In this document: positions 766 to 57,754 of the stretch, piece by piece
Numbering within the stretch: the stretch's first letter is position 1
Layout: each line of letters starts with the position of its first letter
Virus record (IMG/VR): IMGVR_UViG_3300025299_000102
Direction: 5' to 3' (one strand)
DNA from: a virus
Lineage: Duplodnaviria; Heunggongvirae; Uroviricota; Caudoviricetes
DNA length: 64,000 nt
Notes under the pieces: generated by a model
Database searches by the model: none
Told to the model about the DNA's origin: nothing
The model's input: the letters and a program-made list of their open reading frames with translations, nothing else
Translations under genes and position numbers: made by a program

Positions 766-907
766 ATAGCAAGGAGTCCTAAATCAAAAGCCGACTCCTA
801 ACTCACGCCAGAATTTTTAAAACTTTTTGCTAACAGGGGGCTTTTCTTTAATACGTCTAGCTGCTAAAGTGCAACTCAGCTTCAATTTACAAGGAGGAGT
901 GTACGCA

Positions 908-1195
908 ATGACCACTTACGCTGAGTATCAGGCGCAAATCGCGCAGCTTCAAAAAGAGGCAGCAGCAGTCCGGGAAAACGAAATCGCTGGTGCAAAAGCT
1001 CAGATTCATAAGCTCATGCAGGACTTCAATCTCACGATTGCAGACATTTCGCTGAAACCGAGCAAGGTCGCAAAGGAACGCAAGACTGTTGAAGCCAAAT
1101 ACCGCAATCCCGCGACGGGAGAACTCTGGACGGGCCGTGGCCGAGCACCGCGCTGGCTGGACGGTAAAGACAAAGCTGACTTCCTGATTAAGTAA
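908..1195 (+). CDS. H-NS family nucleoid-associated (xenogeneic silencer-like) protein
   Basis: C-terminus YRNPATGELWTGRGRAPRWL...DFLIK matches H-NS DNA-binding motif (TWTGQGRTP...FLIK); N-terminal heptad/coiled-coil; AGGAGG RBS upstream of ATG at 908 (ORF-track start at 827 lacks RBS). Confidence 0.75.
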   Translation: MTTYAEYQAQIAQLQKEAAAVRENEIAGAKAQIHKLMQDFNLTIADISLKPSKVAKERKTVEAKYRNPATGELWTGRGRAPRWLDGKDKADFLIK

Positions 1196-5854: not shown

Positions 5855-5982
5855 CTCCCTGTGGCTGAGCTGGCTTAAGGCGGCGGACTCTAAACCCGAT
5901 GCGAAACCTGCTCTTGGCTACGGACTTTTGTTCGATGCAAGACTGGCGTTTGCCGTGGGTTCGAATCCCACCAGGGGGACCA
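5855..5982 (+). ncRNA. oversized tRNA-like RNA (7-bp acceptor stem, D-arm-like hairpin, canonical T-arm GTGGGTTCGAATCCCAC, discriminator A, CCA); 128 nt
   Basis: 3' end GTGGG-TTCGAAT-CCCAC-CAGGGGG-A-CCA; 5' CTCCCTG pairs with CAGGGGG (one G.U); GCTG/CGGC D-stem with GG loop; middle ~70 nt does not fold as a normal anticodon arm. Confidence 0.5.
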
Positions 5983-8222: not shown

Positions 8223-9125
8223 ATGAAGAAAATAGCAAGTCATGGCGGTTCCTTTCACGCTGATGATGCGCTTGGCATTTCGATGCTGCGCGCGCTGTAT
8301 CCTGATGCGGAAGTTGTTCGCACACGCGACCCGGCCGTTTGGGCTACCTGTGACGCGCTAGTTGACGTCGGCGGTGAACATGACCCCGTGCGCAACCGGT
8401 TCGACCATCACCAGAAGGGCTTTGCGGAGCGTCGCGCAAACGGTATTCCGTACGCAGGCTCAGGCCTGGTCTGGGCTGCCTATGGCGCCCGCTATGTATT
8501 GACCATGGTCGATTGGGCGTCGTACGCCGAAGCTGAAATCATTGCGCGGATGGTCGATGAAAAGCTCATCCAACATGCTGATGCCGTCGACAGCGGTATC
8601 AACGTTCCAGGGTCAATGCACTTCAACCTGTCGGGCATCATCGACACCCTGAACAGCCGCTGGTATGAGCCAGAAGGCGATGATGACCTGCTTTTCGCAG
8701 AAGCAGTTGAACTTGCGGGCACAGTTCTTCGGAACCTGGTGCGTGCGGTCGCAGCTGAATATGCAGCAGCAGACCGAGTTCGTAATGCACAGCAGCTTGC
8801 CGGCGGCCGTATTATCGTGCTTGACGCAGCTCGCCTGCCATACGACCCTGTTGTGGTCAATGAGCTGCCGGACTGCCTCTTCGTGGTGTACCCTGAATCG
8901 ACAGGCAAACAGCACCAGGTCCGAGTTGTTCCGAAGGTTCTGGGTAAGTACGAAGCTCGCGCAGACCTTCCTGAAGCATGGGCCGGCCTTCGTGACGATG
9001 CACTGGCCGCGGCTACCGGTGTCAAGGACGCGGTCTTCTGCCATAACGGTCGCTTCATCTGTGGTGCCGGGTCGAAAGCCGGCGCAATTCGCATGGCTGA
9101 GCTTGCGCTTGAGGCTCTGGAGTAA
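8223..9125 (+). CDS. MYG1/UPF0160 family metal-dependent hydrolase (paralog 1)
   Basis: N-terminal HGGSFHADDALG and DHHQ motifs typical of MYG1/GAMM1 exonuclease family; AAGGAGGA RBS; TTGACG-17-TATACT promoter upstream. Confidence 0.65.
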   Translation: MKKIASHGGSFHADDALGISMLRALYPDAEVVRTRDPAVWATCDALVDVGGEHDPVRNRFDHHQKGFAERRANGIPYAGSGLVWAAYGARYVLTMVDWASYAEAEIIARMVDEKLIQHADAVDSGINVPGSMHFNLSGIIDTLNSRWYEPEGDDDLLFAEAVELAGTVLRNLVRAVAAEYAAADRVRNAQQLAGGRIIVLDAARLPYDPVVVNELPDCLFVVYPESTGKQHQVRVVPKVLGKYEARADLPEAWAGLRDDALAAATGVKDAVFCHNGRFICGAGSKAGAIRMAELALEALE

Positions 9126-9222: not shown

Positions 9223-9762
9223 TCAATCCGCGAGCGCATCCAGGTGCGCTTGATGCGCATAGCAGCTATTGCAAATCGGCACCCATTCGCGAGTGTCGTT
9301 GGCTTGTTGGCCACAATAAGCGCACTTACACAGTGTTTTAGTCAGCAGAACTCTCACGCAAACATGATGTCGCGCTGCTGCAGGATAGCCGCTCTTCTTA
9401 CAGATGGGGCAATCTCCAGGTGTATCCAACAAGCCGGCTTTGTCTAAGCTCAAATTTGCAGCTTCTACAAAATCCTTGTCCGATTTGAATTCGCCCCAGG
9501 GTTCCAAGATACCTGCCACGGTAAATAGCTCACTGGGCGTCAACTTCAGATTTGGCATCAGTGTATGCACACGATTTGCCAAAGCGAACAGTTCTGGCGT
9601 CAAAGTTACGTTTCCGGCGGCCGGGCCCGGTGTCCATGTCTTTACCAGTTGGTCAGCCTGCCGGTAAATTTGTCCAACTTTCGTGGGGGACAGCCCCATC
9701 TCGTTGGCCAATTCTTCCATGGTGTTCAAGCTAGGCATCAATACAGTTTCATTAGGGTTCAT
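9223..9762 (-). CDS. putative transcription regulator (HTH + C-terminal C4 zinc finger)
   Basis: Sigma region-4-like helix-turn-helix TMEELANEMGLSPTKVGQIYRQA; C-terminal CPICKK...CKCAYCG...CNSC; GGAGA RBS before ATG 9762. Confidence 0.45.
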   Translation of the reverse strand: MNPNETVLMPSLNTMEELANEMGLSPTKVGQIYRQADQLVKTWTPGPAAGNVTLTPELFALANRVHTLMPNLKLTPSELFTVAGILEPWGEFKSDKDFVEAANLSLDKAGLLDTPGDCPICKKSGYPAAARHHVCVRVLLTKTLCKCAYCGQQANDTREWVPICNSCYAHQAHLDALAD

Positions 9763-9810
9763 GCGTTTCTCCAAAGTTAGTTTCCTCAATCCTGTATAGC
9801 CCGACTTAAG

Positions 9811-9850
9811 TAACTTGCTTGAAGTTACGTTAATCGCTATTTCGTGGTAT
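9811..9850 (+). promoter_or_regulatory. promoter with operator-like inverted repeat (GTAACTT-n5-AAGTTAC) and TATACT -10
   Basis: Inverted repeat overlaps -35 position; -10 GGTATACT at ~9843. Confidence 0.4.
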
Positions 9851-9878
9851 ACTATCGGCTCCACAGGAGAATTTCCAC

Positions 9879-34062: not shown

Positions 34063-35220
34063 TTAGTGCATGTGAGCGGCGCCGTGCTCAGCCATACCTT
34101 TGTTCAGGGAGTCGGCGTGTGGCAGCGCGAACTGGAACTCGCCGCAGTGCTGGCAGGCGGTGGTGTTGATTGGCTCGTGATAGCCTTGAATGCAGTCCAG
34201 GCCCATGTCTTTCAGGATATGGCTTGCCAGTGCTACTTCTTCTTGGCCATCAGCGGTCACGACCGGCAACTCCAGCGTCGCCACGACGTTCTTGGTCAGG
34301 CGGGAGGTTAGCGTTACGCCGACCATGAAGGTATCGTCCGATTGACGCACAGCGTAGGGAGCCACCAGCGCGGCCAGACCGTTAGGTTCCACGCCAGAGT
34401 GGACGCAAACATTCATCATCATTTCACGGAATTGCACATCCATGCGCAGGCGTTCGCCCATCGACAAGGCTTGTGTGAATGGTTGCGGCAGCGAAGCCAC
34501 ATGCACAGCGAAGTCTTTGCCCAGCGATGCCGACAACGTTTCAGTTGCCCACTGGCTCATGCGGTTCATCGTTTGAGCCGAGCCCATTGGCATGGTCGGG
34601 GTCAGTCCTTCAGGGTTGAAGGCTACGAATGGCAGGTAATACAGGCTTACACCCTTGCCAACATTGCCAGTATCGACACCGGTAGTGAAGTCCAGCTGTT
34701 TACTTTCGCCGCGAACTACCTCGCGAGCTTCGTGCGGCAGACGCACCAAGGAACCCAGGTCGGTATTGCGAATCTGTTCGTCGGAATACAGCGCCGGGAC
34801 AATGAAGGTCCAGCCAGTGCGATTGCCGTTGGCCTTAATGGCGGACAGGCCCAACTGCTGCAGCAGGCAACCCGACATCTTCAGGGCATTCAGATTGCGT
34901 TGCAGGGGCAGAATCGAAGGCAGGGTTGCATCTGTGCTTACGACCACTGGCAGCAGCCACAGTCCCAAGGTGCCGCCGCAGTCCAGCAAGTGGAAGTTAG
35001 TGGCGCGGTCCAGGGCGGCCGTCAGCTGCGGGCCAAGGGCCTCTGGGCAGCTATCCAGAGCTTCAGTGAACGATTGTTGAGGCTGACCCGACAAAACGGC
35101 CTCTTGAATCAGTGCAGCGGTGGATACCAGTGCGGTCGCGCAATCATGTTCAGTTTTCGCGGAGGCCAGGCATTCCAGGGAAACCATCAGAGAAGAAGGG
35201 GTCAGTGCAGCAGAAGTCAT
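34063..35220 (-). CDS. hypothetical protein (~385 aa)
   Basis: ORF; ATG 35220 preferred; AT-rich promoter island upstream. Confidence 0.5.
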   Translation of the reverse strand: MTSAALTPSSLMVSLECLASAKTEHDCATALVSTAALIQEAVLSGQPQQSFTEALDSCPEALGPQLTAALDRATNFHLLDCGGTLGLWLLPVVVSTDATLPSILPLQRNLNALKMSGCLLQQLGLSAIKANGNRTGWTFIVPALYSDEQIRNTDLGSLVRLPHEAREVVRGESKQLDFTTGVDTGNVGKGVSLYYLPFVAFNPEGLTPTMPMGSAQTMNRMSQWATETLSASLGKDFAVHVASLPQPFTQALSMGERLRMDVQFREMMMNVCVHSGVEPNGLAALVAPYAVRQSDDTFMVGVTLTSRLTKNVVATLELPVVTADGQEEVALASHILKDMGLDCIQGYHEPINTTACQHCGEFQFALPHADSLNKGMAEHGAAHMH

Positions 35221-35562
35221 CGGGTAAGGTTCCTTGTTTGTCCGTGGTATCGTGTACCACCATGGGACAGAACTATACCGTGTGACGCCACTTTTGTCAA
35301 GTGATTGGGCGAAAACCAACCTTGTTTTAAGCCTAATTCTGCCCAAAACTACGTAGTACTACCGACGAATCGGCACAAAAATACCATTTTCGTAACTATT
35401 ATAGCTCAAAATTATAACTTATGCATTACAAAATGTAACGCCAAAATTACAACCGTGTACGAGTTAACTTCACAACCGCGTCAGTTCGCGTGTACATGCG
35501 TGTAATGTAAACTCAATTCTATCCAATACTCACCCCTTCTTTTCCTAGAGTATTCCCTCTAG

Positions 35563-35844
35563 TTATGCCCCGCTTGGAGTGTCCCAGTCGTTTTGCGGCA
35601 TAGCTGGCCGGGCAACGAGCTTTCCGCGGTGCTCTTTCTCGGACTGGCAGCGCACGCAACGGATGCGGCCCATGTCCAGACGTGCCTTAGGAATGTCATC
35701 CCCACAGTCGATGCAGGTCACTCCATCGAAGTCTGGGTGGGTCTCTGGTGCGTTGGCGCGGCGCGCGGCCGCAATGCCGCCGTCCGCCAAAGAGGCGGCC
35801 AGGGCTGCTGCCTCGTCAATCGGGTCAGCGTGTCGTTCAAACAT
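35563..35844 (-). CDS. TraR/DksA-family C4 zinc-finger protein
   Basis: CIDCGDDIP...RIRCVRCQ (C-x2-C-x17-C-x2-C) at C-terminus. Confidence 0.6.
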   Translation of the reverse strand: MFERHADPIDEAAALAASLADGGIAAARRANAPETHPDFDGVTCIDCGDDIPKARLDMGRIRCVRCQSEKEHRGKLVARPAMPQNDWDTPSGA

Positions 35845-36062
35845 GGCAGGTCCTTCACCTGAGTTTTCCCAGTTCAGGCAAAAAGCGCCCCGCATAGTCA
35901 GCGGGGCAGGGTTGAGGATGCATCTGTGCGCTGGGTCGCACGCGATTGACCAGTATAGGTGCGCGCAACTTGACAAACTCGACAAATTAGCTATTTGTTG
36001 ATATACTATGAAATACCCATTGTTGCACCTATCAACTTGACCGACCTCCGGTCGGAGCATAA

Positions 36063-39456: not shown

Positions 39457-39532
39457 TTTGTGTATCTCACAGGCAGCTTTCGCTCTATACGGCACTAAGG
39501 ACACAACGATTAATTTTTCTTAGAGGCTAAAT

Positions 39533-40489
39533 ATGACGACAACTGTCAAACTAATCACGCATGACCGCGTGGTCCATGCGGACGATGCATTTGCTGTGGC
39601 AATCCTGCGGATTGCCTTTGGCGAAGTGGCTGTAATTCGTACCCGTAACCCTGAAATCCTCTATGTCGAGGCAGGGAAGCCGGATACATTCCTGCTCGAT
39701 GTAGGCGGGCGCTACGACCCTGAACAGCGCCTGTTCGACCATCACCAGCCGGAAGGTGCAGGTTACCGCAACATGCAGGTTTCGCCTCCAGAATGGCCGT
39801 ATGCAACTGCTGGCCTGGTCTGGAAGCATTACGGTGCCCAAGCCGTTCGTGCGCTGCATCCGTTTCTGAACGAAGAAGGTGTTCAAGAACTGGTGCAGCA
39901 CATCGACGACATCCTGTTGAAGTACATCGATGCGGTCGATTGTGGCGTACGCCTCAAGACCTCCGGACCATCCGTGTCCGCAATTATCGGTAGCTTCAAC
40001 TCGGCCTGGTTTGAGAAGGAGGAGGATGCGTTTCCACTGGCGAATTCTGTCGCCCAGGTGATTCTGTCCAACTTCATCAAGCGCCATGCCGGAAAGGTTC
40101 TGGCCCGTGACAAGGTGCGTCATGCGGAGTCTCGCATGGATGGTCGTGTACTTCTGCTGGAGGAATGCGTTCCTTGGGTTGAAGTTGTCATGGATGAAAT
40201 GCCCGACGTGATGTTTGTCGTGTATCCAGTTCGTGATGAATCGGAGACCATCCTCCAATGGCAGCTGCGTGCGGCGGCCAACAAGGATAAAACTCCACGT
40301 GTGATGCTCCCTCAAGCCTGGGGCGGGTTGGAGCGCAATGCTCTGGCACGTGTTTCTGGCGAACGAGATGCTGTGTTTTGTCACCGTTCGCGGCACCTCG
40401 CCGGAGCTATGTCTCAGGAAGGTGTCATGCACATGGCTGACATGGCAATTCGTGAGCACGTTCAGTCCGCGGAGCTGTTGGCCGCGTAG
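39533..40489 (+). CDS. MYG1/UPF0160 family metal-dependent hydrolase (paralog 2)
   Basis: THDRVVHADDAFA and DHHQ motifs; collinear with 8223..9125 product. Confidence 0.65.
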   Translation: MTTTVKLITHDRVVHADDAFAVAILRIAFGEVAVIRTRNPEILYVEAGKPDTFLLDVGGRYDPEQRLFDHHQPEGAGYRNMQVSPPEWPYATAGLVWKHYGAQAVRALHPFLNEEGVQELVQHIDDILLKYIDAVDCGVRLKTSGPSVSAIIGSFNSAWFEKEEDAFPLANSVAQVILSNFIKRHAGKVLARDKVRHAESRMDGRVLLLEECVPWVEVVMDEMPDVMFVVYPVRDESETILQWQLRAAANKDKTPRVMLPQAWGGLERNALARVSGERDAVFCHRSRHLAGAMSQEGVMHMADMAIREHVQSAELLAA

Positions 40490-42624: not shown

Positions 42625-43125
42625 TTACAGATAGCCAACTGCAGTAGGCGGGAGGCCCAGGCGTTGTGCAACATGAATAGCATGCTGTCCTGTCGGCATG
42701 GTGCCGCGCTCCCAGTTTTGCAGCGTAGTGATGGGTATGCCCCAAGCTGCCGCAAATTCCCTCAAATTCAGCCCCAGTTGCATTCTCTTTGCGATAATCA
42801 GCGTCGCAATATCAATAACCGGAGAGGGCGCCTGCTTAGTCAAACGCAGCGCGCGCTGAATGCGGAGAGTTTGAACTGCGTCTGTCGGATAGCTAAGCAA
42901 GTTAAGTCCCAGTAGTCGCGCTACGCGGACCAGCTTCAGTCCTTTCGGTATGCGCAATTCCGTCTCCCAACCGGCCAAATCGCTTCCGGTAATCCCGGTC
43001 ATCAACTCGACCAAATCAGCCCGCGTCCAACCATTTGCACTGCGGAGACTGCTCAAGCCTTGTGCGATGTCTCGCTTAAGCTTTGCATCCGATTTCTGCG
43101 GTGCAGTTTGCACGTGTTGTTCCAT
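42625..43125 (-). CDS. XRE-type helix-turn-helix regulator
   Basis: C-terminal LREFAAAWGIPITTLQNWERG HTH. Confidence 0.5.
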   Translation of the reverse strand: MEQHVQTAPQKSDAKLKRDIAQGLSSLRSANGWTRADLVELMTGITGSDLAGWETELRIPKGLKLVRVARLLGLNLLSYPTDAVQTLRIQRALRLTKQAPSPVIDIATLIIAKRMQLGLNLREFAAAWGIPITTLQNWERGTMPTGQHAIHVAQRLGLPPTAVGYL

Positions 43126-43129
43126 AATA

Positions 43130-44520
43130 TCCTCAAGTCAGATTCAAACCAGTTAGGTGTTTTTCCACTTCAAGGTATAGTTCCAGGAACGTAAAAACCC
43201 CGGTTGACCCGGGGTTTGAGGTTAGCCGCGGCGAATTTCGCCGGCATATTCTTGACGTCCGCCCAGCCCTAAAGGGCAGGGATTCCTGCTGCCAGGCCCG
43301 CACGTCCGCGGGCGAGGATGTTCTTGGCGGCATTGACATCGCGGTCGTGTTCCGCGTTGCAAGCACAGCACTGCCATCCTCTTATTCCAAGACCTGCGAC
43401 ACCTTTCGGCCCCGTGCGTGAACCGCAGCACGAACAAGTCTGGGTGGAAAACGCTTCATTGACTTCCTCGAACCATACGCCGGCGTCAGCGCACTTGTAC
43501 TGCAGCATGGTTCGGAATGCACGCCAGCCGGCATCGAGCACGGACTTCGCCATGCCGGTTTTTGCCAGGGCGGCCGCATTCACGTTGCCTACGAAGATAG
43601 CACCATACTCGCGTGCGAGCGTGGTACTGAATTTGTGCAAGGCGTCCTTGCGCCTGTTTGCTATTTTTGCATGCAGGGCTTTGACGCGTTGTTTCTTATT
43701 CGCCCGCTGAGCCATCGCCAACGCCGGCTCCAGGTCCCGATAGAACCGGTTTGCCTCGAGTGTCTCGCCAGTGCTGAGCGCAGCGAAGTCTTTCAGGCCC
43801 AGGTCGATACCGACTTCCCGGGTGGTGGTACTGCGCGCTGGCTTGGAGAACTTGACCGTAACGTTCAGGTACCAACGGCCACGGCTATCCTCGCTGAACG
43901 AGCCAGGTCCCAGTTCGAATTGGCTTAGGCTGTAGCTGTCCCACAGCGAAAACGGTTGACCACAATACCAGAGCTGGCCCTGTCGGTATCGCAAGGCTGA
44001 TGCCTTAAACGGTACCCAACCTAATGACCTGCGTGCGCCACCTGATTTGCGCCAGGCCAACCGCCGTTTATTAAATTGTCGCCGCCGAGTGACCAGTTCC
44101 TTGCTAATTGCCTGTACCGTTTGCGAATGGAGTGATAGACCTACTTTTGTCGCACCTGACGTGTAGCGGTCCAACTCAATGTTTGAGCAGAATCGTCCCT
44201 CGCGTTCTAACACTTTTACAGCTAGCTCGTTACAGAAGTTCCACACGAAGTTAACTTCCCGAGCCTGTGCGCGCAAGAACGCACTGTGCTTGTCTTTCAG
44301 TCTAAGGCGCAAGGTTCGTATTGTCGACGAAGAACTACTGGTCATATGTACAGTATATTCGATGCCCGCCGTATCAGCAAGTCACTGGATGCGCCCAACA
44401 TCCCCGGCCTTTAGGCCGGAGCCTTCGAATACCTCTTTGAGCCTGCCTGCGACTAACGCATCCTTCAGTTCACCGCACCGGACATAGCCCAGGCTTGGAG
44501 TTATTGCTCATAGGTATAAG
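43130..44520 (-). mobile_element. IS200/IS605-family insertion element carrying only tnpB (IS1341-like)
   Basis: TnpB ORF flanked by subterminal hairpins (AAACCCCGGttgaCCCGGGGTTT 43196-43218; CCCCGGCCtttaGGCCGGAG ~44395-44415; GGCCGtttaGCGGCC ~44523); boundaries approximate. Confidence 0.55.
43269..44345 (-). CDS. tnpB: TnpB (OrfB) RNA-guided endonuclease-type transposase accessory protein
   Basis: 358 aa; RuvC-like residues and C-terminal zinc finger CSCCGS...CCACNAEHDRDVNAAKNI typical of IS605 OrfB. Confidence 0.8.
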   Translation of the reverse strand: MTSSSSSTIRTLRLRLKDKHSAFLRAQAREVNFVWNFCNELAVKVLEREGRFCSNIELDRYTSGATKVGLSLHSQTVQAISKELVTRRRQFNKRRLAWRKSGGARRSLGWVPFKASALRYRQGQLWYCGQPFSLWDSYSLSQFELGPGSFSEDSRGRWYLNVTVKFSKPARSTTTREVGIDLGLKDFAALSTGETLEANRFYRDLEPALAMAQRANKKQRVKALHAKIANRRKDALHKFSTTLAREYGAIFVGNVNAAALAKTGMAKSVLDAGWRAFRTMLQYKCADAGVWFEEVNEAFSTQTCSCCGSRTGPKGVAGLGIRGWQCCACNAEHDRDVNAAKNILARGRAGLAAGIPAL

Positions 44521-47722: not shown

Positions 47723-48114
47723 AGCTGGTTCCGAAAAAAGAACCCTGGCAAAGCCAGGATTCAGGAGTTAGCGGATAACGATGAGGCATTTCGTTTTGCT
47801 GGGCAAATAGCGGCAGGAAACGTTGACGTCGCCCGCACGAGTGCTGGAGGCCTTCGGATGCTGGCAGAAGCCCATCCCCGGACATTGGCCTCGGGTCTCT
47901 TTCCAGTTTTGACAATTTCCGCATGTGTCAGCGGTTTCGGTTTGATTAGGCACGGTATTTCCTTTCATATCTTTTTGATGTCCTGTGACCCTTTGTATAG
48001 CTCAAAAGAAGCAGTGTGCAATTGATGGATTTAGCACTATACGTTCACGTAGGCACATATACCGAGCGGTGGTTATCCGCCCTCGATTCTAAGTTTATTT
48101 ACGCATAGGAAAAA

Positions 48115-52746: not shown

Positions 52747-55203
52747 TTAGCGATACACGGCAGCCAAGGCCACGCATAAATCTTTCACCGCGTCCGCCGG
52801 CGCAGCACCATTACTGGTGGTCATCATGCGTAGCAGCGGAAACCGTGTCAGCAGATTCCTGTACACCAGGTCATAATTCACCATGCCCTGGTGCTTCAAG
52901 CGCTCCAGCGAATCCAGAAGTTCCGTGCGGTCCTTCGTATCCGTTGGCTGCGCAGCCAAGTGATTGCCAAAGCGGATTAGACCACCGCAAAGTTTGCCGA
53001 AGTTCTGATTCACAATTGCGGACTTATGCAATTTAGTGGTCCCAGTTAGCAAATCGACGTGAGGTGAAATCTCCTTGTCGAACTGCGTTCCGGTCAACTC
53101 CAAGCGGGGGCTCTTTGCTAGCATCTCGCACAGGTTGGTAAACTGCCAGCATTCGGATACTTGTCGAACCTTTTTCCCCGCCAGGACGTTTTGAACGTCA
53201 GGGCGAGCAACTAGCTCCGATAGCAGGGCCTCCACTGGTTTCCAGGATTTAAGAGCTTTGACTTCAGCTATCGTTGCTTCGTCGATTTCGTTGTCAATGA
53301 AATCGGCCTCGCTCATCTCAAGTAACCCTTCAGCATCGGCTTCATCAATCGCTTGACGAAGTTCTGCTGCTTGTTTGGGATTGAGAAGATACAGGCGGTC
53401 GACTTTCACAGCCTCCAAAATGTGCTCAAGTCCGCCTTCCGACCCGTAACTAGCGTGCAAATGGCCAAGCTGGGAATCTTTAGCAAAGCCGGCCAGCGCC
53501 CCGCCATCCTTTTCCAGCCACACGCGAACAGGCTCCGTGGTGCTGATAGCCATCATGTTCATCGGCTCCGTCACCTGCTTGTCCGCTTTAACAGAGAAAT
53601 ACGTCAAGGCAGCTCGCCGGCTCACTGAACTACGTGAACCTGCTTCCCGCGGTACGTCCGGCATTTTCGAGGTGAGTATAATTTCCAACTCACCAAGGAA
53701 TGCTTTCGAGACCGAGTCAGCCGCTGCTTTCGCTTCGCCAGCAACGGTTGAAGCAAAAAAGATGAACTGACGATGCTTGTTGTTGTTCACCCAAGCTCGA
53801 GCTCGCTGCGTTCCGCCAGACTTCATGTCATCCACCAGCAGGATGACGGGGTCATTTGCGATGAAGGTCTGTGCAACGTAAGAACCTTTTTCAGCAGGAA
53901 TCGCAATTCGGCCAGAAACTACATAGGCCGCACGCATAGTTCCACTTCCCTTGCTGGTGTATTTCAACTTCAGGTCGTCTCCCGACGCTGAAATCGGCAT
54001 ACGCAGCTTGCCATTCCACTCATACCCACCTGTAGCCGTTTTCAGCGTCTTGTTAAGCACATACTCAATTTTCTCCTGCGGTGTGTTCTTGATGTACTGC
54101 TGCCGGGTGCTCTTCGCAAACCAATGCCAGGCCTCGGTATTTCCGAGCAGATTAGAAAGCAAAGCTCTAGGTGTTAGGCCAGGCAAGGAATATAGCTCCT
54201 GCGCCTTCGCAACAACAGCTTTTCCGGCTGCAGCGTCTATGCGTTTCAAGAGTTCGTTTACTTCGTCGGTGTATTTAATTTCTTCACGTGACGGCATGAA
54301 CGGAATCTTGAACGACATCGGGACCTCAACTACCATTCCCTCCTCAAACACTGACTCCACGTCGGTAGGTGTTTGAACATGGAAAGGCAAGCCGCCTACG
54401 CCAAATTCTTTGTTAGTCATGACCAACAAAGAACCCTTCTGCGTGCCCTGACGATGGTACTTCAGATTCGACCCCTTCATGGGGTAAACACGAACCCCTT
54501 TCAGACCCGAATCCACCGTTCCCAGGTCCAGTACTGTGCCCGAGAATTCTGGCAGCATGGTTGGTAGGGCGCCGAGGTTGTCCACTGTGAAGGAGTCTCC
54601 CATAGTCAGCTGCATCACTTCTTTCAGCCAGGCCACAGCCCGCAGAGCTTCAGCGATGTCAGTTTCTTTGACAGGGAAGTACACCCTGGTTCCAACTACA
54701 GAGCCCGGCACCTCAGAGGCCTTTTGCACACGAGGCTTCAAGCCGTCGCCCTGGAATTGGAAGTAAGTACGTTCCACCATGTCACTTTCGTGGCAGGTAG
54801 TGATGTAGCACTCACGGATATAACCGTAAGCTGCCCATCGCCCTACGCCCAGGCCGCCGGCCGCGTTGTTATCGCCTTCCTTAGTTGATTTGCCAAACGA
54901 CAGATAACCGTTAGGGTCTTCCATGAAGGTCTGCGTCATGCCAGAGCCTTTGTCGATGACGGTAATCATCGGATTAGCGATGGTCGGCAACTGCACCAGT
55001 ACGCCTTCAGCGAACGACAAACCAGCACGTCGCGACGCATCACAGGCATTCTGAATGGCCTCACGAATGGCCGACATCAAGATGAACGCATACACTGTGG
55101 ACAGCATCTCCATCAGTGCACCATTCAAGTTGACCGTCGCATCCATCGCGCTGCCCATTGCCGTCACATCCGCCTTTTTCGAGTCGGTTGCAATAATTGC
55201 CAT
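52747..55203 (-). CDS. GHKL-superfamily ATPase, Hsp90-like N-terminal domain (818 aa)
   Basis: N-box REAIQNACDA (cf. Hsp90 RELISNASDA), G1 IDKGSGMT, G2 GGLGVGRWAAYGY (cf. GQFGVGFYSAF). Confidence 0.6.
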   Translation of the reverse strand: MAIIATDSKKADVTAMGSAMDATVNLNGALMEMLSTVYAFILMSAIREAIQNACDASRRAGLSFAEGVLVQLPTIANPMITVIDKGSGMTQTFMEDPNGYLSFGKSTKEGDNNAAGGLGVGRWAAYGYIRECYITTCHESDMVERTYFQFQGDGLKPRVQKASEVPGSVVGTRVYFPVKETDIAEALRAVAWLKEVMQLTMGDSFTVDNLGALPTMLPEFSGTVLDLGTVDSGLKGVRVYPMKGSNLKYHRQGTQKGSLLVMTNKEFGVGGLPFHVQTPTDVESVFEEGMVVEVPMSFKIPFMPSREEIKYTDEVNELLKRIDAAAGKAVVAKAQELYSLPGLTPRALLSNLLGNTEAWHWFAKSTRQQYIKNTPQEKIEYVLNKTLKTATGGYEWNGKLRMPISASGDDLKLKYTSKGSGTMRAAYVVSGRIAIPAEKGSYVAQTFIANDPVILLVDDMKSGGTQRARAWVNNNKHRQFIFFASTVAGEAKAAADSVSKAFLGELEIILTSKMPDVPREAGSRSSVSRRAALTYFSVKADKQVTEPMNMMAISTTEPVRVWLEKDGGALAGFAKDSQLGHLHASYGSEGGLEHILEAVKVDRLYLLNPKQAAELRQAIDEADAEGLLEMSEADFIDNEIDEATIAEVKALKSWKPVEALLSELVARPDVQNVLAGKKVRQVSECWQFTNLCEMLAKSPRLELTGTQFDKEISPHVDLLTGTTKLHKSAIVNQNFGKLCGGLIRFGNHLAAQPTDTKDRTELLDSLERLKHQGMVNYDLVYRNLLTRFPLLRMMTTSNGAAPADAVKDLCVALAAVYR

Positions 55204-55379
55204 AATTTACCTCCGTTAGATAATTGAAAACTCAGAAAGCGCAAGCTTCGCGCCCTATATGTGCCTACAAGGCCGTATAGCTCTCTGCGAAAGGCGTTCC
55301 TGATGTTATGCAGACCGAATTAAGACCCAGGCCGTCCCAGCGGTTTAGGCGCGGGCGCGTCGGGCTGACCAGTACCCCT

Positions 55380-55505
55380 AAGCAGTACGGTCGATTAATG
55401 ATATATCGTTGATAAATAACGTATTTTACGCTATTATGCGTTTATACGCTATACGAAAACGGACATATAGTCCGTGTCAACCCGCCGGGTTGCACACGTG
55501 TGAAC
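55380..55505. promoter_or_regulatory. AT-rich intergenic region with clustered palindromes and short direct repeats
   Basis: ACGGACatataGTCCGT, CAACCCGcCGGGTTG, CACACGTGTG in tandem; TACGCTAT repeats; CGATtaatgatatATCG. Confidence 0.4.
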
Positions 55506-55524
55506 ATTACGAGAGGAAACAACT

Positions 55525-56700
55525 ATGACTATCACTTGCCTGAGCCAGGTTGCATTGCATTGCAAAGACGGTAGCAGCGACAAGCTGTACATTATCCAGG
55601 TGCAGGAGGAGACTACTGCGGCTGGAACTAAGTACAAGACTGTGGGCTACTACGGTCGTAGGGGCGGCACCTTGAACACCTCTCAGAAGTTTGAGGGGCC
55701 TAGTCTCGCAGCCGCAAATGCGAAATCCAATGCCTTGGAAAAGGAGAAGCGGGGCAAGGGTTACGACGACTATACAGACCCAATTCCTGGGATGCCTTCG
55801 GCTGCACCTAAGTTCGGCGGTCCTGCGGTGGCATCTGCTGCGGCTGCAGTAGCTGCTGCGGTGCCCCCTAAGAAGGCATCCGTAGGGCCGCTGCCTATGC
55901 TCGCTGAAGTCGCGGACGAAGCTCGTGCAGAAGTGCTGATGTCCGACCCAGACTGGGTGGGGCAAAAGAAGTACGACGGTGAGCGCGTGACGGTTTCTAT
56001 TCGTCGAAACGGTATCCAGGCATATAACCGAAAAGGCGAGGAGCGCGCACTGTCCGGGCCGGCAGAAGCTTCTTTGAAGCGACTGGTTGCACGTACGGAC
56101 TTCAGCGATGACCGTGAGACGGTTCTCGATGGTGAACTGATGGGTGACGTGTACGTTGCCTATGACGTCCTTGTTCTGCGCGATAACGACATTCGCAAGA
56201 CGTCGTACGAAGAACGTTACTATCAGCTGGAAGCGCTGCTCGAAGACAACCTCGGGCTGCTGGCCGAAACCGCCTGGACCGAAGAGGCAAAGCGTGCCAT
56301 GTACGCTCGTGCCTTGAAAGAGGGTTGGGAAGGCATGATGTTCCGTAATGTGGAAGGCAACTACGTTACCGGACGCACGCCGCTCCTGCTGAAGTTCAAG
56401 CTCTGGGCTACTGCAACTTGCCGTGTTTTGACGGTGAACTCGAAGCGTTCTGTTCAACTCGCCCTGCGAGACGAACACGACAACGAACAGTTCTGCGGCA
56501 ATGTCACGGTGCCGGTCAATCAGGACATCCCTACCGGCGATGACCTGGTCGAAGTTCGCTACCTCTATGCAATGGAAGGTGGCAGCTTGTACCAACCAGT
56601 GCTGATTCGTGTGCGTACAGACATCGATGAGGCAGACCTGCGTTCAACCCTGCGACAAGCACCGCCAGAAAAGCGTGAACCTCTGGCTGCTGCCGCATAA
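55525..56700 (+). CDS. ATP-dependent DNA ligase with N-terminal WGR domain
   Basis: WGR-like KLYIIQV...VGYYGRRGG...KGY; ligase motifs KKYDGERV (I), DGELM (III), EGMMFR (IV), LLKFK (V). Confidence 0.8.
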   Translation: MTITCLSQVALHCKDGSSDKLYIIQVQEETTAAGTKYKTVGYYGRRGGTLNTSQKFEGPSLAAANAKSNALEKEKRGKGYDDYTDPIPGMPSAAPKFGGPAVASAAAAVAAAVPPKKASVGPLPMLAEVADEARAEVLMSDPDWVGQKKYDGERVTVSIRRNGIQAYNRKGEERALSGPAEASLKRLVARTDFSDDRETVLDGELMGDVYVAYDVLVLRDNDIRKTSYEERYYQLEALLEDNLGLLAETAWTEEAKRAMYARALKEGWEGMMFRNVEGNYVTGRTPLLLKFKLWATATCRVLTVNSKRSVQLALRDEHDNEQFCGNVTVPVNQDIPTGDDLVEVRYLYAMEGGSLYQPVLIRVRTDIDEADLRSTLRQAPPEKREPLAAAA

Positions 56701-56788
56701 AACACCTCACTCGGCCCGGTCACTTTTGTGACTGGGCCTTTTTCTATACTGGGTTTCGGCGCGTTGGCGTCTTTTCTCAGAAAGAACC

Positions 56789-57754
56789 ATGTTTTATCGA
56801 AAAAATAGTGAAGGTGAGGTCCTGACGCAGGAATCCCTGGTAGCAGAGCTTCTCAAAGAGCGAAAGCGTGACCGGCGCGCGGGCCTGTTGAAAACCGCGT
56901 TCTTCGTGCTGGCGGGTATCGCATATTTTTGGTGGTGGTCGGCCATCTTCAATTTTGGTGGCGCTCAGGGTGAGGTTGAAACGAGCAAGCCATTTGCGGC
57001 CGTCGTCAAGATTTCAGGCATGATTAGCCCTGACAGTGAAGCCAGCTACGAAGTATTGGCCCCTACACTCAAAAAGGCGTTTGAGCATCCCAACTCCAAA
57101 GGCGTGGTCTTGGCCATCAACAGCCCTGGCGGCACGCCCGTGCAGTCTGCACTCATCCACGACCTCATTGTCAAGCTGAAGAAAGAAACCGGCAAGCCGG
57201 TGGTTGCGGTCGGCGAAGATATGATGACATCTGGCGCCTACATGATTGCTGTTGCGGCTGACCAGCTTGTCGTCAATCGCTCAACCGTAACTGGCTCGGT
57301 AGGGGTGATTTCTTCCGGCTTCGGATTTAGCGGGTTGATGGATAAGCTCGGTGTCGAGCGCCGTGTTGCGACTGCCGGCCAGTCCAAAAATCTCCTGGAC
57401 CCGTTCAGCCCTCAGACCGAAAACAGCATCGCAAAGCAGCACGAGCTGCTGTCGGCTATCCACGGGCACTTCATCGACATCGTTAAAGCAGGGCGTGGCG
57501 ACCGGCTAGACCTGCATACCAAAGGCCTTTTTGAAGGCACTGTCTGGACAGGCGAGGAAGCAGTGAAGCTCGGCGTGGTGGATGAACTGGGTGACATGCA
57601 GGGTGCTGCTAAGAAGTACCTCGGTGTCGATACCGTTGTCTCGCTGTCCCGCCGGAAGCCAATGCTTCAATCCTTGCTGGATACCGCTGGAGTCAAAGTG
57701 GCAAACTCGGTCATCAACAGCTCGGTTCAAATGCCAATGGCAACCTTCCAGTAA
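56789..57754 (+). CDS. sppA: S49-family peptidase (SppA/SohB-like)
   Basis: N-terminal TM; GKPVVAVGEDMMTSGAYMIAVAAD...GSVGVISSGFGFSGLMDKLGVE catalytic Ser/Lys regions of S49. Confidence 0.75.
   Translation: MFYRKNSEGEVLTQESLVAELLKERKRDRRAGLLKTAFFVLAGIAYFWWWSAIFNFGGAQGEVETSKPFAAVVKISGMISPDSEASYEVLAPTLKKAFEHPNSKGVVLAINSPGGTPVQSALIHDLIVKLKKETGKPVVAVGEDMMTSGAYMIAVAADQLVVNRSTVTGSVGVISSGFGFSGLMDKLGVERRVATAGQSKNLLDPFSPQTENSIAKQHELLSAIHGHFIDIVKAGRGDRLDLHTKGLFEGTVWTGEEAVKLGVVDELGDMQGAAKKYLGVDTVVSLSRRKPMLQSLLDTAGVKVANSVINSSVQMPMATFQ

Follow-up and report, generated by a model that had tools for sequence, protein, structure and literature searches.

Organization of the locus

The spacer at positions 55204-55524 is exactly the gap between two divergent start codons (55203 on the minus strand and 55525 on the plus strand), and it is the longest spacer in the window, by which we mean the whole 64-kb stretch of DNA that was analysed. 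The minus-strand gene codes for an rIIA-like GHKL ATPase (hereafter HATPase; phrog_612, E=2e-29, with tblastn matches to T4-type rIIA), and a partner gene of ~266-267 codons is carried on the same side. The plus-strand gene codes for a WGR ATP-dependent DNA ligase. The order (218 aa) <-|-> AAA_5, 678 aa, 267 aa, HATPase <-|-> ligase is kept in 11-15 loci, and our comparisons were made among 14-17 related loci of the same gene order, whose ligases are 50-94% identical.

The locus belongs to a giant mobile element of Burkholderiales-type hosts, with contigs of up to ~0.57-0.7 Mb. Contigs of the family (0.2-0.7 Mb) derive from Burkholderia, Paraburkholderia, Achromobacter, Novimethylophilus and soil metagenomes; members occur, for instance, in the Burkholderia ambifaria assembly GCA_900631675.1 and in strains of B. 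ubonensis. A megablast search of plasmid and phage collections at the DNA level gave no match to positions 54000-57000, a scan of genome contigs with a single ligase sequence gave no match, and the corresponding profile scan yielded four loci only. Viral contigs gave only distant ligases (31-37% identity) without synteny, and these loci served as outgroups. Given that plasmids with distant WGR ligases (Mycobacterium, Variovorax) have no HATPase neighbour, the HATPase-ligase pair is taken to be family-specific. PADLOC assigned no defence system to the neighbouring genes, and a literature search on the CTATAC motif described below and on the element family returned nothing relevant.

Table 1. 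Features of the HATPase-ligase spacer and related sites in the window
Feature	Position	Strand	Basis or remark
Shine-Dalgarno sequence of HATPase gene, GGAGG (start codon 55203-55201)	55210..55215	-	sequence
GC-rich hairpin in HATPase leader, AGGGCGCGA-agc-TTGCGCTTT, ~+11 to +31 of predicted transcript	55236..55256	-	terminator-like scan
Start region AGGCACATATAG of HATPase promoter, predicted start A ~55266	55255..55266	-	conservation
Promoter box GCTATAC facing HATPase	55275..55281	-	inverted partner of 55448-55454
GC-rich filler between the two promoters	55286..55391	none	differs most from the 94% relative, with an indel
CGAT-n9-ATCG, AT-rich, just 5' of P1 -35 hexamer (UP-element position)	55392..55408	none	sequence
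P1, sigma70-like promoter TTGATA - 17 nt - TATTAT	55409..55437	+	promoter scan, 10/12 matches
Two TACGCTAT direct repeats (55427-55434, 55445-55452) as tandem -10-like boxes: GCTATTAT of P1, GCTATAC of P2	55427..55452	+	
Promoter box GCTATAC (P2) facing ligase	55448..55454	+	conserved spacing in relatives
Palindrome 1, ACGGACatataGTCCGT	55459..55475		
Hairpin 1 (HP1), GGAC-auaua-GUCC, from predicted +1; carries GGACATAT; core of palindrome 1	55461..55473	+	
Hairpin 2 (HP2), GUGU-CAACCC-gcc-GGGUUG-c-ACAC; palindrome 2 plus left half of palindrome 3	55474..55497	+	
Palindrome 2, CAACCCGcCGGGTTG	55478..55492		
Palindrome 3, CACACGTGTG; not a unit: ACAC is the HP2 3' base, CGTGTGA a conserved single-stranded sequence	55493..55502		
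Shine-Dalgarno sequence GAGAGGA and ATG of WGR DNA ligase	55511..55527	+	GAGAGGAAA conserved
Third copy of box and start region, ACTATAC-gttcacgt-AGGCACATATAC, 5' of AAA_5 ATPase gene (48115)	48036..48062	+	conserved in L030-L033
Weaker divergent copy beside the AAA_5 copy	48000-47995	-	

Composition and chance statistics

A preliminary description of this DNA depicted the spacer as an AT-rich island in a GC-rich genome that harbours direct repeats, CGAT-n9-ATCG and three palindromes. All of these motifs are present exactly as listed (Table 1). The island itself shrinks to one dip of ~60 nt (55394-55453), which at 25% GC is the second-lowest 60-mer of the window after one at 35375. The window is only ~55% GC, and the spacer as a whole, at 48% GC, falls within the range of the 28 other window spacers longer than 60 nt (0.38-0.61).

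The middle of the spacer (55286-55391) is GC-rich and variable among the relatives. This filler is absent where the boxes described below lie only ~60 nt apart (spacer ~200 nt), and in two relatives it is replaced by a 45-aa ORF and a terminator. A 34-aa ORF in the present spacer (55308..55412) was rejected as a gene because of its place within the variable segment and a frame-shift in the 94% relative. Spacer length in the relatives ranges from 201 to 524 nt, and only two promoter-leader modules are common to all of them.

A count of four palindromes (arms of 5 nt or more) over the 321 nt is not unusual (P=0.16). The occurrence of three non-overlapping palindromes within 50 nt has P ~0.0035 per spacer in 2000 dinucleotide shuffles, which is borderline given multiple testing over 29 spacers. 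CGAT-n9-ATCG has trivial 4-nt arms, the left of which reads CGAC in the 94% relative, and the motif is missing from the other relatives. Conservation, not within-window statistics, is what tells the real pieces apart.

A recurrent, putative promoter box and start region

One copy of the heptamer GCTATAC faces each gene of the divergent pair, and the start region that follows it, (A)GG(N)ACATAT, is conserved. These two copies and the third, in front of the AAA_5 gene, are all conserved and have fixed spacing in the relatives. On the ligase side, GGACA is present in 17 relatives, and in these the interval from CTATAC to GGACA is always exactly 6 nt and that from CTATAC to the ATG 73-84 nt; one further relative has CTATAC, no GGACA start and a box that is nearer to the ATG. 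On the HATPase side, AGG(N)(N)CA(Y)AT keeps a constant distance to its box in 15 relatives, and the Shine-Dalgarno sequence and protein N-terminus are conserved in all of them. Across the 64 kb there are two occurrences of the combination GCTATAC-N-ACATA, oppositely oriented, versus 0.02 expected. The order downstream is likewise regular: the box is followed 6-9 nt on by the start region, and then by a GC-rich hairpin, a U-rich stretch, the Shine-Dalgarno sequence and the ATG at near-fixed distances. Every conserved piece of the spacer is at a fixed distance to a start codon. The suggestion that this is a dense regulatory spacer is borne out, in the form of two oriented, predicted promoters with leaders that are conserved in relatives.

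Among upstream hexamers, CTATAC dominates throughout the element family. It heads the upstream-enriched hexamers together with TATACG and TATACT, it occurs 33 times in the window versus 7.7 expected, and it is enriched 4-10 fold over the family, with 5-10 fold in every family locus compared and no enrichment in the outgroup loci; TATAAT occurs at expectation in the family loci. Of 111 CTATAC sites, 72 lead into a Shine-Dalgarno sequence and a start codon no more than 100 nt away (median 62 nt), and the sites mostly lie 30-85 nt upstream. The box shows the orientation, the upstream over-representation and the consistent short distance to start codons that mark a generic promoter element. It lacks the hallmarks of a canonical sigma70 promoter, namely a -35 element and a conserved T at the end of the -10 hexamer. 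The base after CTATAC in the 72 gene-proximal sites is G33/C15/A13/T11, so T is not conserved there, and it is never T in the ligase, HATPase and AAA_5 promoters of any relative. The -35 position of the CTATAC sites carries no information content.

Two other promoter types were considered and rejected. The resemblance to promoters of T7-like single-subunit polymerases (...CTATA / TAGGTG.ACA) was set aside because nothing is conserved upstream of the box, and a sigma54 promoter (GG..GC) was discarded for want of a match to TGGCAC-N5-TTGC. No gene for a sigma factor, a gp55-like protein or a polymerase was found among the window ORFs scanned (64 kb).

The AT-rich stretch and the direct repeats

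On the ligase side, the putative promoter P1 shows the -35 hexamer, 17-nt spacer and -10 hexamer of a canonical sigma70 promoter, and these lie at the same distance from the box in six relatives, including the 94% relative. Three other relatives lack the AT-rich P1 segment altogether. Both the TACGCTAT repeat and the AT-rich dip would arise because P1 sits in tandem 18 nt upstream of the box, each repeat copy covering one -10-like element. The second copy is changed to TATGCTAT in the 94% relative, and similar tandem boxes recur in three other relatives and in the AAA_5 promoter of one locus.

These observations bear on the proposal that the AT-rich island with its repeats and palindromes might be a replication origin or a packaging (pac/cos-type) site, which we consider highly improbable. 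The spacer does contain the second-lowest GC 60-mer, is the longest in the window and adjoins DNA-metabolism genes including the ligase. However, it holds no DnaA box TTATCCACA within one mismatch and no iterons, its repeats being two-copy repeats of 9-11 nt, and the ~60-nt AT stretch is fully explained by the conserved -35/-10 promoter. Features typical of an oriV or oriC are therefore lacking. The GC-skew analysis proposed in the preliminary description does reveal a sign flip at the spacer, but within this 64-kb window of a ~570-kb replicon the flip coincides with the switch in coding strand, and the same pattern is seen elsewhere in the window. An AT-rich repeat region at 35347-35560 would be the better local candidate for an origin. 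Moreover, the relatives' spacers share nothing but the two promoter-leader modules, and all conserved pieces keep their distance to a start codon.

A second proposal, that an encoded H-NS-like protein would prefer this DNA, is compatible with a promoter function. The window does encode a protein with an H-NS C-terminal domain (827..1195; Histone_HNS, E=6e-13), and the P1/P2 segment 55394-55453 stands at 25% GC in an element of 55% GC. The sequence tCGATAAATT is a high-affinity H-NS nucleation motif (PMC2094087), and TTGATAAATA (55409-55418, inside P1) matches it at 8 of 10 positions, the consensus being derived from E. coli. A nucleation site there might silence or tune the ligase promoters. 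Binding of the protein to this stretch would be plausible, and we regard the silencing or tuning role as rather unlikely. Points against it are that the AT-rich tract is short, that other window spacers are equally AT-rich overall, that the motif consensus comes from E. coli and that several relatives are without the AT-rich P1 segment.

Two adjacent hairpins in the ligase leader

Palindromes 1 and 2 coincide with two hairpins, HP1 and HP2, that directly adjoin each other (spacing 0 nt) in every ortholog. The four pairs of HP1 are present in 14/14 aligned orthologs with loops of 4-10 nt; the only changes are C-to-U substitutions that leave G.U pairs, and HP1 lacks true covariation because its 5' arm is invariant. 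HP2 has ten pairs, seven of which show compensatory double changes, with 89.5% of cells paired and a loop that is conserved neither in sequence nor in length. Taken together, the two stems have 92.6% of cells paired and double changes in 7 pairs (22 cells), versus 20-50% paired in slid-register controls. None of 500 shuffles reached the covariation score, a control that overstates significance because the orthologs are phylogenetically related. A plain MAFFT alignment that was not fitted to the structure gave the same pairing result, and individual folds show the same HP1-HP2 architecture in most orthologs. Since the stems contain 25 G.U cells versus a single A.C cell, the sense strand is the one that pairs. 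The ligase leader thus exhibits the compensatory, strand-specific substitutions expected of a conserved RNA structure.

RNAalifold on the raw MAFFT alignment of whole leaders recovered HP1 only, because indels misalign HP2, and a covariance model (R1) was used to resolve this misalignment. Over 241 kb the model matches ligase leaders only. Folded as a whole, the ligase leader has an energy only modestly better than that of shuffles (z=-1.5). No Rfam family matches the spacer at its gathering threshold, and the sole match at E up to 1 is a chance hit to CRISPR-DR (17 bits versus a threshold of 39). A role as intrinsic terminator or attenuator was rejected because no U-run abuts the hairpins, and no terminator-like site was found on the plus strand. 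A U-rich stretch that follows HP2 by 7-9 nt in relatives is absent in the window.

Palindrome 3 has a different history. In the 94% relative it reads CACGTGTG after a 2-nt deletion, and in other relatives GCGTGTGTGA, CGCGTGT or GCGAGTGA, in each case without symmetry. By contrast, palindromes 1 and 2 mirror, at the DNA level, two adjacent predicted RNA hairpins at the putative 5' end of the ligase mRNA, as opposed to being sites for dimeric proteins, because pairing is kept while loops vary and G.U pairs appear only in the sense strand. The double hairpin is a covariation-supported leader RNA located 5' of WGR-type DNA ligase genes and absent from Rfam.

The palindromes had been read as multiple regulator binding sites, and operators for the encoded HTH proteins (9223..9864 and 42625..43125) could in principle act on the ligase and HATPase promoters. 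The spacer is indeed a promoter region, and the protein encoded at 42625..43125 is a double HTH_3 protein. In addition, (A)GG(N)ACATAT is confined to a few promoters of the neighbourhood, three (ligase, HATPase and AAA_5) or, with the weak copy at the 218-aa gene, four, a pattern of sharing that a class-specific operator overlapping +1 would give. The evidence from the palindromes points the other way. None of the three has another copy in 64 kb, and a comparison with relatives shows that the first two persist as pairing while the third is lost. The arms of palindrome 1 are separated by a variable 4-10 nt among orthologs, palindrome 2 keeps its pairing through covarying arms and not its sequence, and the G.U-only asymmetry indicates that a single RNA strand is under selection. 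The start region common to these promoters is itself non-palindromic. The arrangement is therefore unlike that of dimeric operators, and we judge operator function for these repeats rather improbable. Regardless, a simple promoter model does not account for the conserved start region, which could alternatively be an operator.

The HATPase leader also carries a hairpin, the GCGC..GCGC stem of which is kept in 13 relatives with few compensatory changes, and this leader folds no better than shuffles (z=-0.24). Among leaders located 3' of CTATAC in the window, 7/12 fold with z < -1.5 versus 9% of control segments.

Proposed function

On the basis of these characteristics, we propose with a probability of roughly 70% that the spacer is the bidirectional promoter region of the divergent pair, equipped with a family-specific box and, on the ligase side, with leader RNA hairpins. 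GCTATAC would be a -10-type, -35-independent promoter element, and the geometry suggests the A or G of (T)AGG / (Y)GGACA as the point where transcription begins. Recognition of the -10 element by the sigma70 family normally requires T(-7). For the box, the presumed reader would be an RNA polymerase of bacterial type, with a specificity factor from either the host or the element that accepts any base at this position. On the ligase side, the canonical sigma70-like P1 would operate in tandem with the box. The ligase transcript is predicted to begin with HP1 (+1..+13) followed by HP2 (+14..+37); the pairing is shown by covariation, and the 5' end is a prediction. The most likely role of the hairpins would be protection of the message against 5'-end-dependent decay (RppH / RNase E) through shielding of its terminus, as in ompA and papA, and a binding site for a translational or autoregulatory protein may be considered a secondary possibility.

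This last possibility can be given a more specific form, in which the two hairpins are a dedicated cis-acting RNA device, either an operator at which the ligase, or a different nucleic-acid-binding protein, would autoregulate translation, or a put-like RNA that modifies the transcribing polymerase. The T4 gp32 and gp43 operators exemplify translational autoregulation. The restriction of the two-hairpin unit to ligase leaders, the invariant GGACAYAT and CGTGTGA sequences around the hairpins and their abutment in every ortholog would all suit such a device. Nevertheless, the HP2 loop is not conserved, which speaks against contact with a specific ligand or protein at that point, Rfam has no matching family, GGACAYAT is also accounted for as the shared promoter start region, and there is no terminator before the ligase ORF that would require read-through. 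We view the device as a doubtful candidate.

A broader interpretation would be that this family of giant elements runs its own transcription programme, comprising an undescribed -35-less GCTATAC promoter that breaks the sigma70 T(-7) rule, an element-encoded sigma-like factor or polymerase modifier, an initiator-marked promoter sub-class and a new leader RNA. We offer this as a tentative idea that is unlikely to be correct. If it is true, the (A)GG(N)ACATAT initiator would co-regulate a module composed of the rIIA-like ATPase, the AAA_5 ATPase and the WGR ligase, and the covarying double hairpin of the ligase would be a new cis-regulatory RNA motif.

The spacer itself is an ordinary kind of element whose promoter motif is family-specific and unusual. 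The conserved signature, GCTATAC with or without the AGGNACATAT initiator, makes transcription units mappable across these very large, uncharacterised mobile elements, and it suggests that researchers may wish to look for a non-canonical specificity factor. The locus also carries a warning that clustered DNA palindromes beside a start codon may reflect RNA hairpins instead of protein sites or origins.

Comparison with known systems

Plasmid oriV and phage pac regions likewise display a local AT-rich dip and short direct repeats. Unlike those regions, which combine an AT-rich DUE with iterons or DnaA boxes, the spacer has neither; its repeats are promoter hexamers, and its conservation is tied to start codons.

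A 5'-terminal stem-loop stabilises mRNA, as for ompA and papA (Emory, Bouvet and Belasco 1992; Bouvet and Belasco 1992; Bricker and Belasco 1999; all as listed in PMC3997798). The ligase leader resembles these stabilisers in that a hairpin starts at or within 1-2 nt of the predicted mRNA 5' end and in that loops vary while pairing covaries. It differs in having two abutting hairpins and a 5' end that is predicted. The HATPase and AAA_5 leaders begin with ~11 unpaired nt, and because their hairpins start at that distance from the predicted 5' end, they are a misfit to the rule of 5'-terminal protection.

Among promoters, T4 late promoters are -35-independent and -10-only, with the sequence TATAAATA, and are read by gp55-RNAP. 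The box is similar in being one short motif at the -10 position, without a -35, that stands before many genes of one element with host-type spacing to the predicted start site. The differences are that the motif is GCTATAC rather than TATAAATA, that a subset of promoters has a conserved initiator and that no gp55-like or other sigma gene was found among the ORFs scanned in the 64-kb window. Extended -10 promoters carry TGnTATAAT, and sigmaS-type -10 elements carry C(-13)TATACT. The box shares G(-14) and C(-13) followed by TATAC with these, and one third of the sites read CTATACT, a 5/6 match to TATAAT; T(-7) and T(-15), however, are not conserved in it.

In layout, the spacer resembles the back-to-back promoter regions of bacteria and phages that have 5'-UTR stem-loops, where each gene has its own oriented promoter, hairpin and Shine-Dalgarno sequence, and where the stretch between the promoters is variable and dispensable. 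What sets this spacer apart from ordinary regions of that kind is that an unusual box and a conserved start sequence recur in both promoters, and in a third at a distance of 7 kb, in place of ordinary -35/-10 pairs.

Gene context of the spacer

Divergent start codons bound the spacer at 55204-55524, which lies between the genes for an 818-amino-acid (aa) HATPase protein and a WGR-domain DNA ligase (see table). The former is rIIA-like, matching phrog_612 (E=2e-29) and, by tblastn, T4-type rIIA/rIIB. This gene and its conserved partner are syntenic with the ligase throughout the family, whose local gene order is (218 aa) <-|-> AAA_5, 678 aa / 267 aa, rIIA-like <-|-> ligase (with or without an S49 peptidase). 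No DNA-level match to the element was found in plasmid or phage collections. An identical ligase is found on contigs of up to 572 kb, and contigs of 0.2-0.7 Mb from Burkholderia, Paraburkholderia, Achromobacter, Novimethylophilus and soil metagenomes carry homologues of 50-68% identity.

Features of the spacer and of the window
Feature	Position	Strand	Remark
HATPase_c_3 protein, 818 aa	52747..55203	-	One flank of spacer
WGR / ATP-dependent DNA ligase	55525..56700	+	Other flank of spacer
Conserved partner, 266-267 aa	51913-52713	-	After rIIA-like gene, in rIIB position
CGAT-n9-ATCG	55392-55408		Sequence read
P1, sigma70-like promoter, TTGATA-17-TATTAT	55409-55437		Promoter scan
TACGCTAT direct repeats	55427-34 and 55445-52		Sequence read
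Palindrome 1, ACGGACatataGTCCGT	55459-75		Sequence read
Palindrome 2, CAACCCGcCGGGTTG	55478-92		Sequence read
Palindrome 3, CACACGTGTG	55493-55502		Sequence read
Hairpin HP2	55474-55497		Centroid structure
Third full copy of box and start region	48036-48062		Before AAA_5 gene
H-NS-like protein	827-1195	+	Histone_HNS C-terminal domain, E=6e-13
tRNA match (Rfam)	5855-5979	+	36.9 bits over 125 nt
MYG1-family (UPF0160) exonuclease paralogues	8223-9125; 39533-40489	+; +
Protein with two HTH_3 domains	42625..43125		Adjoins TnpB gene
TnpB / IS605 OrfB-type	43269-44345	-	Cas12f1-like TNB and OrfB_IS605 domains

The window also encodes nucleic-acid and translation auxiliaries, namely NAD synthase, RNA ligase, a 5'-3' exonuclease, a class II tRNA synthetase, topoisomerase, PhoH-PIN, MYG1 (two copies within a single 64-kb window), TnpB, a DksA/TraR-like protein and an H-NS-like protein. 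The Rfam tRNA match lies downstream of the NAD synthase gene and may represent an atypical tRNA gene, for instance one interrupted by an intron; ARAGORN predicts no tRNA in the window despite this match.

Composition of the spacer

All motifs listed in the preliminary description were recovered where it placed them. The sharp fall in GC content that it reported for a GC-rich genome (window GC ~55%) holds for 55394-55453, which at 25% GC is the second-lowest 60-mer of the window, but not for the spacer as a whole, whose 48% GC is normal within the 0.38-0.61 range of spacers here and whose middle is GC-rich. Four palindromes per 321 nt are not unusual (P=0.16), whereas three within 50 nt are (P ~0.0035 per spacer). 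None of the three recurs elsewhere in the window.

GC content in the window is lowest at 35347-35560 (22% over 60 nt), a stretch that carries repeated TGTAA/TTACA motifs (e.g. ATTACAAAATGTAA), lies upstream of the gene at 34063..35346 (-), and adjoins the topoisomerase gene and the DksA/TraR zinc-finger gene (35563..36060). It is a better local candidate than the spacer for an origin-like or H-NS-bound region.

Two conserved modules face the flanking genes

Compared with a 94% relative (L023), the ~80 nt beside each start codon are nearly identical, and variation is greatest in the GC-rich middle (55286-55391), where there is also an indel. Among 16-18 more distant relatives the spacer ranges from 201 to 524 nt, and two modules alone are shared, one facing each gene. 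Each consists of a GCTATAC box, a gap (6 nt on the ligase side, 8-9 nt on the HATPase side), a conserved start region of the form (Y)GGACAYAT or (T)AGG(N)(N)CAYAT, and then a GC-rich hairpin followed by a U-rich stretch ahead of the Shine-Dalgarno (SD) sequence and ATG. On the ligase side, the CTATAC-N6-GGACA spacing is invariant in 17 loci, with the box 73-84 nt from the ATG; an eighteenth (L013) has the box nearer the ATG and lacks GGACA. The inverted repeats found in the spacer (I3/I4) are its two oppositely oriented boxes.

The preliminary suggestion of a replication origin or packaging element was rejected: the spacer has neither DnaA boxes nor iterons, its GC-skew change follows the coding strand, conservation is confined to parts linked to the start codons, and the filler can be done without. 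A small ORF in the spacer was also dismissed, as it is not conserved. In two relatives (L015 1019-1542, L024 3479-4000) the spacer reaches ~520 nt through an insert between the conserved promoter modules that carries a 45-aa ORF, a terminator belonging to it and one more CTATAC box.

The third full copy of box and start region has a weaker divergent partner at 48000 (-), and both are conserved in relatives. These boxes stand back to back in a second divergent spacer (47969-48114), where the AAA_5 ATPase has the one at 48037 (+), and a small gene together with the 218-aa gene has the one at 48000 (-). Because both spacers carry a AGGCACATAT-type start region, their comparison suggests a co-regulated 10-kb module joining them. 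The start region is limited to the promoter cluster at 47-56 kb, where it may either help to specify a promoter class or act as an operator.

The CTATAC box as a promoter signature

The window contains 33 copies of CTATAC where 7.7 are expected, and the hexamers most enriched upstream of genes are CTATAC, TATACG and TATACT, ahead of SD words. The box is enriched 5-10 fold in 14/14 family loci and not in nine outgroup loci; TATAAT is not enriched (7 observed, 7.2 expected). An SD and start codon in the same orientation follow within 100 nt at 72 of 111 sites (median 62 nt), compared with ~7% for random sites as estimated from gene density. Across the window and loci L002-L033 as a whole, the excess is 4-10 fold and boxes lie upstream of most genes; one at 39485 precedes the second MYG1 paralogue.

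No -35 signal was detected at positions -45 to -10 of these sites; all that stands out ahead of the box is a short T-rich stretch and G-C. The base 3' of the box is G33/C15/A13/T11, and many sites come after a terminator hairpin with T-run that belongs to the gene before. On the basis of start-codon distance, lack of a -35 and the base after the box, this geometry would fit a -35-independent -10-type element of a bacterial-type polymerase, with transcription starting 6-8 nt downstream at a Y-R step. The sigma70 -10 element has T at -7, a rule that the box, so aligned, would break. No sigma or polymerase gene was found among the window ORFs scanned. The element family seems to rely on a -35-less promoter signature of its own.

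Palindromes 1 and 2 are conserved as RNA hairpins

When orthologs are folded singly from the predicted +1, most form a first hairpin, HP1 (GGAC-loop-GUCC/U), followed directly by a second, HP2, of 9-11 bp. In the window HP2 is GUGU-CAACCC-gcc-GGGUUG-c-ACAC, which takes in palindrome 2 and the left half of palindrome 3. A covariance model built from nine sequences and searched against 241 kb matched ligase leaders alone (14 orthologs). In its alignment 92.6% of cells are paired, compensatory double changes affect 7/10 HP2 pairs (22 cells), and the covariation score was reached by 0/500 shuffles; slid registers give 20-50% pairing. In a plain MAFFT alignment, not fitted to structure, pairing is still 91.9% and 5 pairs covary. 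The only stem changes in HP1 are C-to-U opposite G, and its loop spans 4-10 nt. Non-Watson-Crick cells comprise 25 G.U versus 1 A.C, an asymmetry which argues that selection acts on the sense-strand RNA and not on duplex DNA.

The dense palindromes had been proposed to be multiple regulator binding sites. This operator reading was rejected on the G.U asymmetry, the compensatory changes, the variable HP1 loop and the single copies in the window: palindromes 1 and 2 are kept as sense-strand pairing, and the symmetry of palindrome 3 is lost in L023 (2-nt deletion) and every other relative. Conservation at palindrome 3 is confined to ACAC, which forms the foot of the HP2 stem, and a single-stranded CGTGTGA.

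Folding energy alone is modest evidence for the ligase leader (z=-1.5). For the HATPase leader z=-0.24, and its hairpin is conserved mainly at the sequence level. Leaders after CTATAC boxes in the window fall below z=-1.5 in 7/12 cases versus 9% of controls. The spacer matched no known RNA family in Rfam.

The AT-rich segment and P1

The P1 promoter faces the ligase; its -35, spacer and -10 are kept in six relatives (L023, L009, L031, L025, L010, L032), with the distance to the box unchanged. The two TACGCTAT copies, 18 nt apart, are the -10 regions of P1 (GCTATTAT) and of P2, the GCTATAC box. Relatives have tandem boxes of a similar kind, as does the L033 AAA_5 promoter, and the second TACGCTAT copy is already changed in L023. 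CGAT-n9-ATCG, just upstream of the P1 -35, is not conserved. Within the P1 segment, TTGATAAATA matches the H-NS motif tCGATAAATT (PMC2094087) at 8/10 positions, and the H-NS-like gene was confirmed; modulation by H-NS at this putative site is possible.

Proposed function

The comparisons establish that the spacer has two conserved and oriented promoter-leader modules, that the box is found throughout the family and that the double hairpin covaries on the sense strand. Judged by sequence comparison, the spacer is a real, functional region but an ordinary one, with promoters facing both ways and structured 5' leaders. The analysis adds a family-specific, non-canonical promoter box and a new covariation-supported hairpin pair in the leaders upstream of WGR ligase genes.

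Transcription would start at ~55461/62 (+) and ~55266 (-), and with the former start HP1 would begin at the extreme 5' end of the ligase mRNA. Given that the loops are free to vary, we favour a role for the leader hairpin as an mRNA stabiliser, by analogy with E. coli, in which a stem-loop at the mRNA 5' end blocks 5'-end-dependent decay (Emory et al. 1992; Bouvet and Belasco 1992, as listed in PMC3997798).
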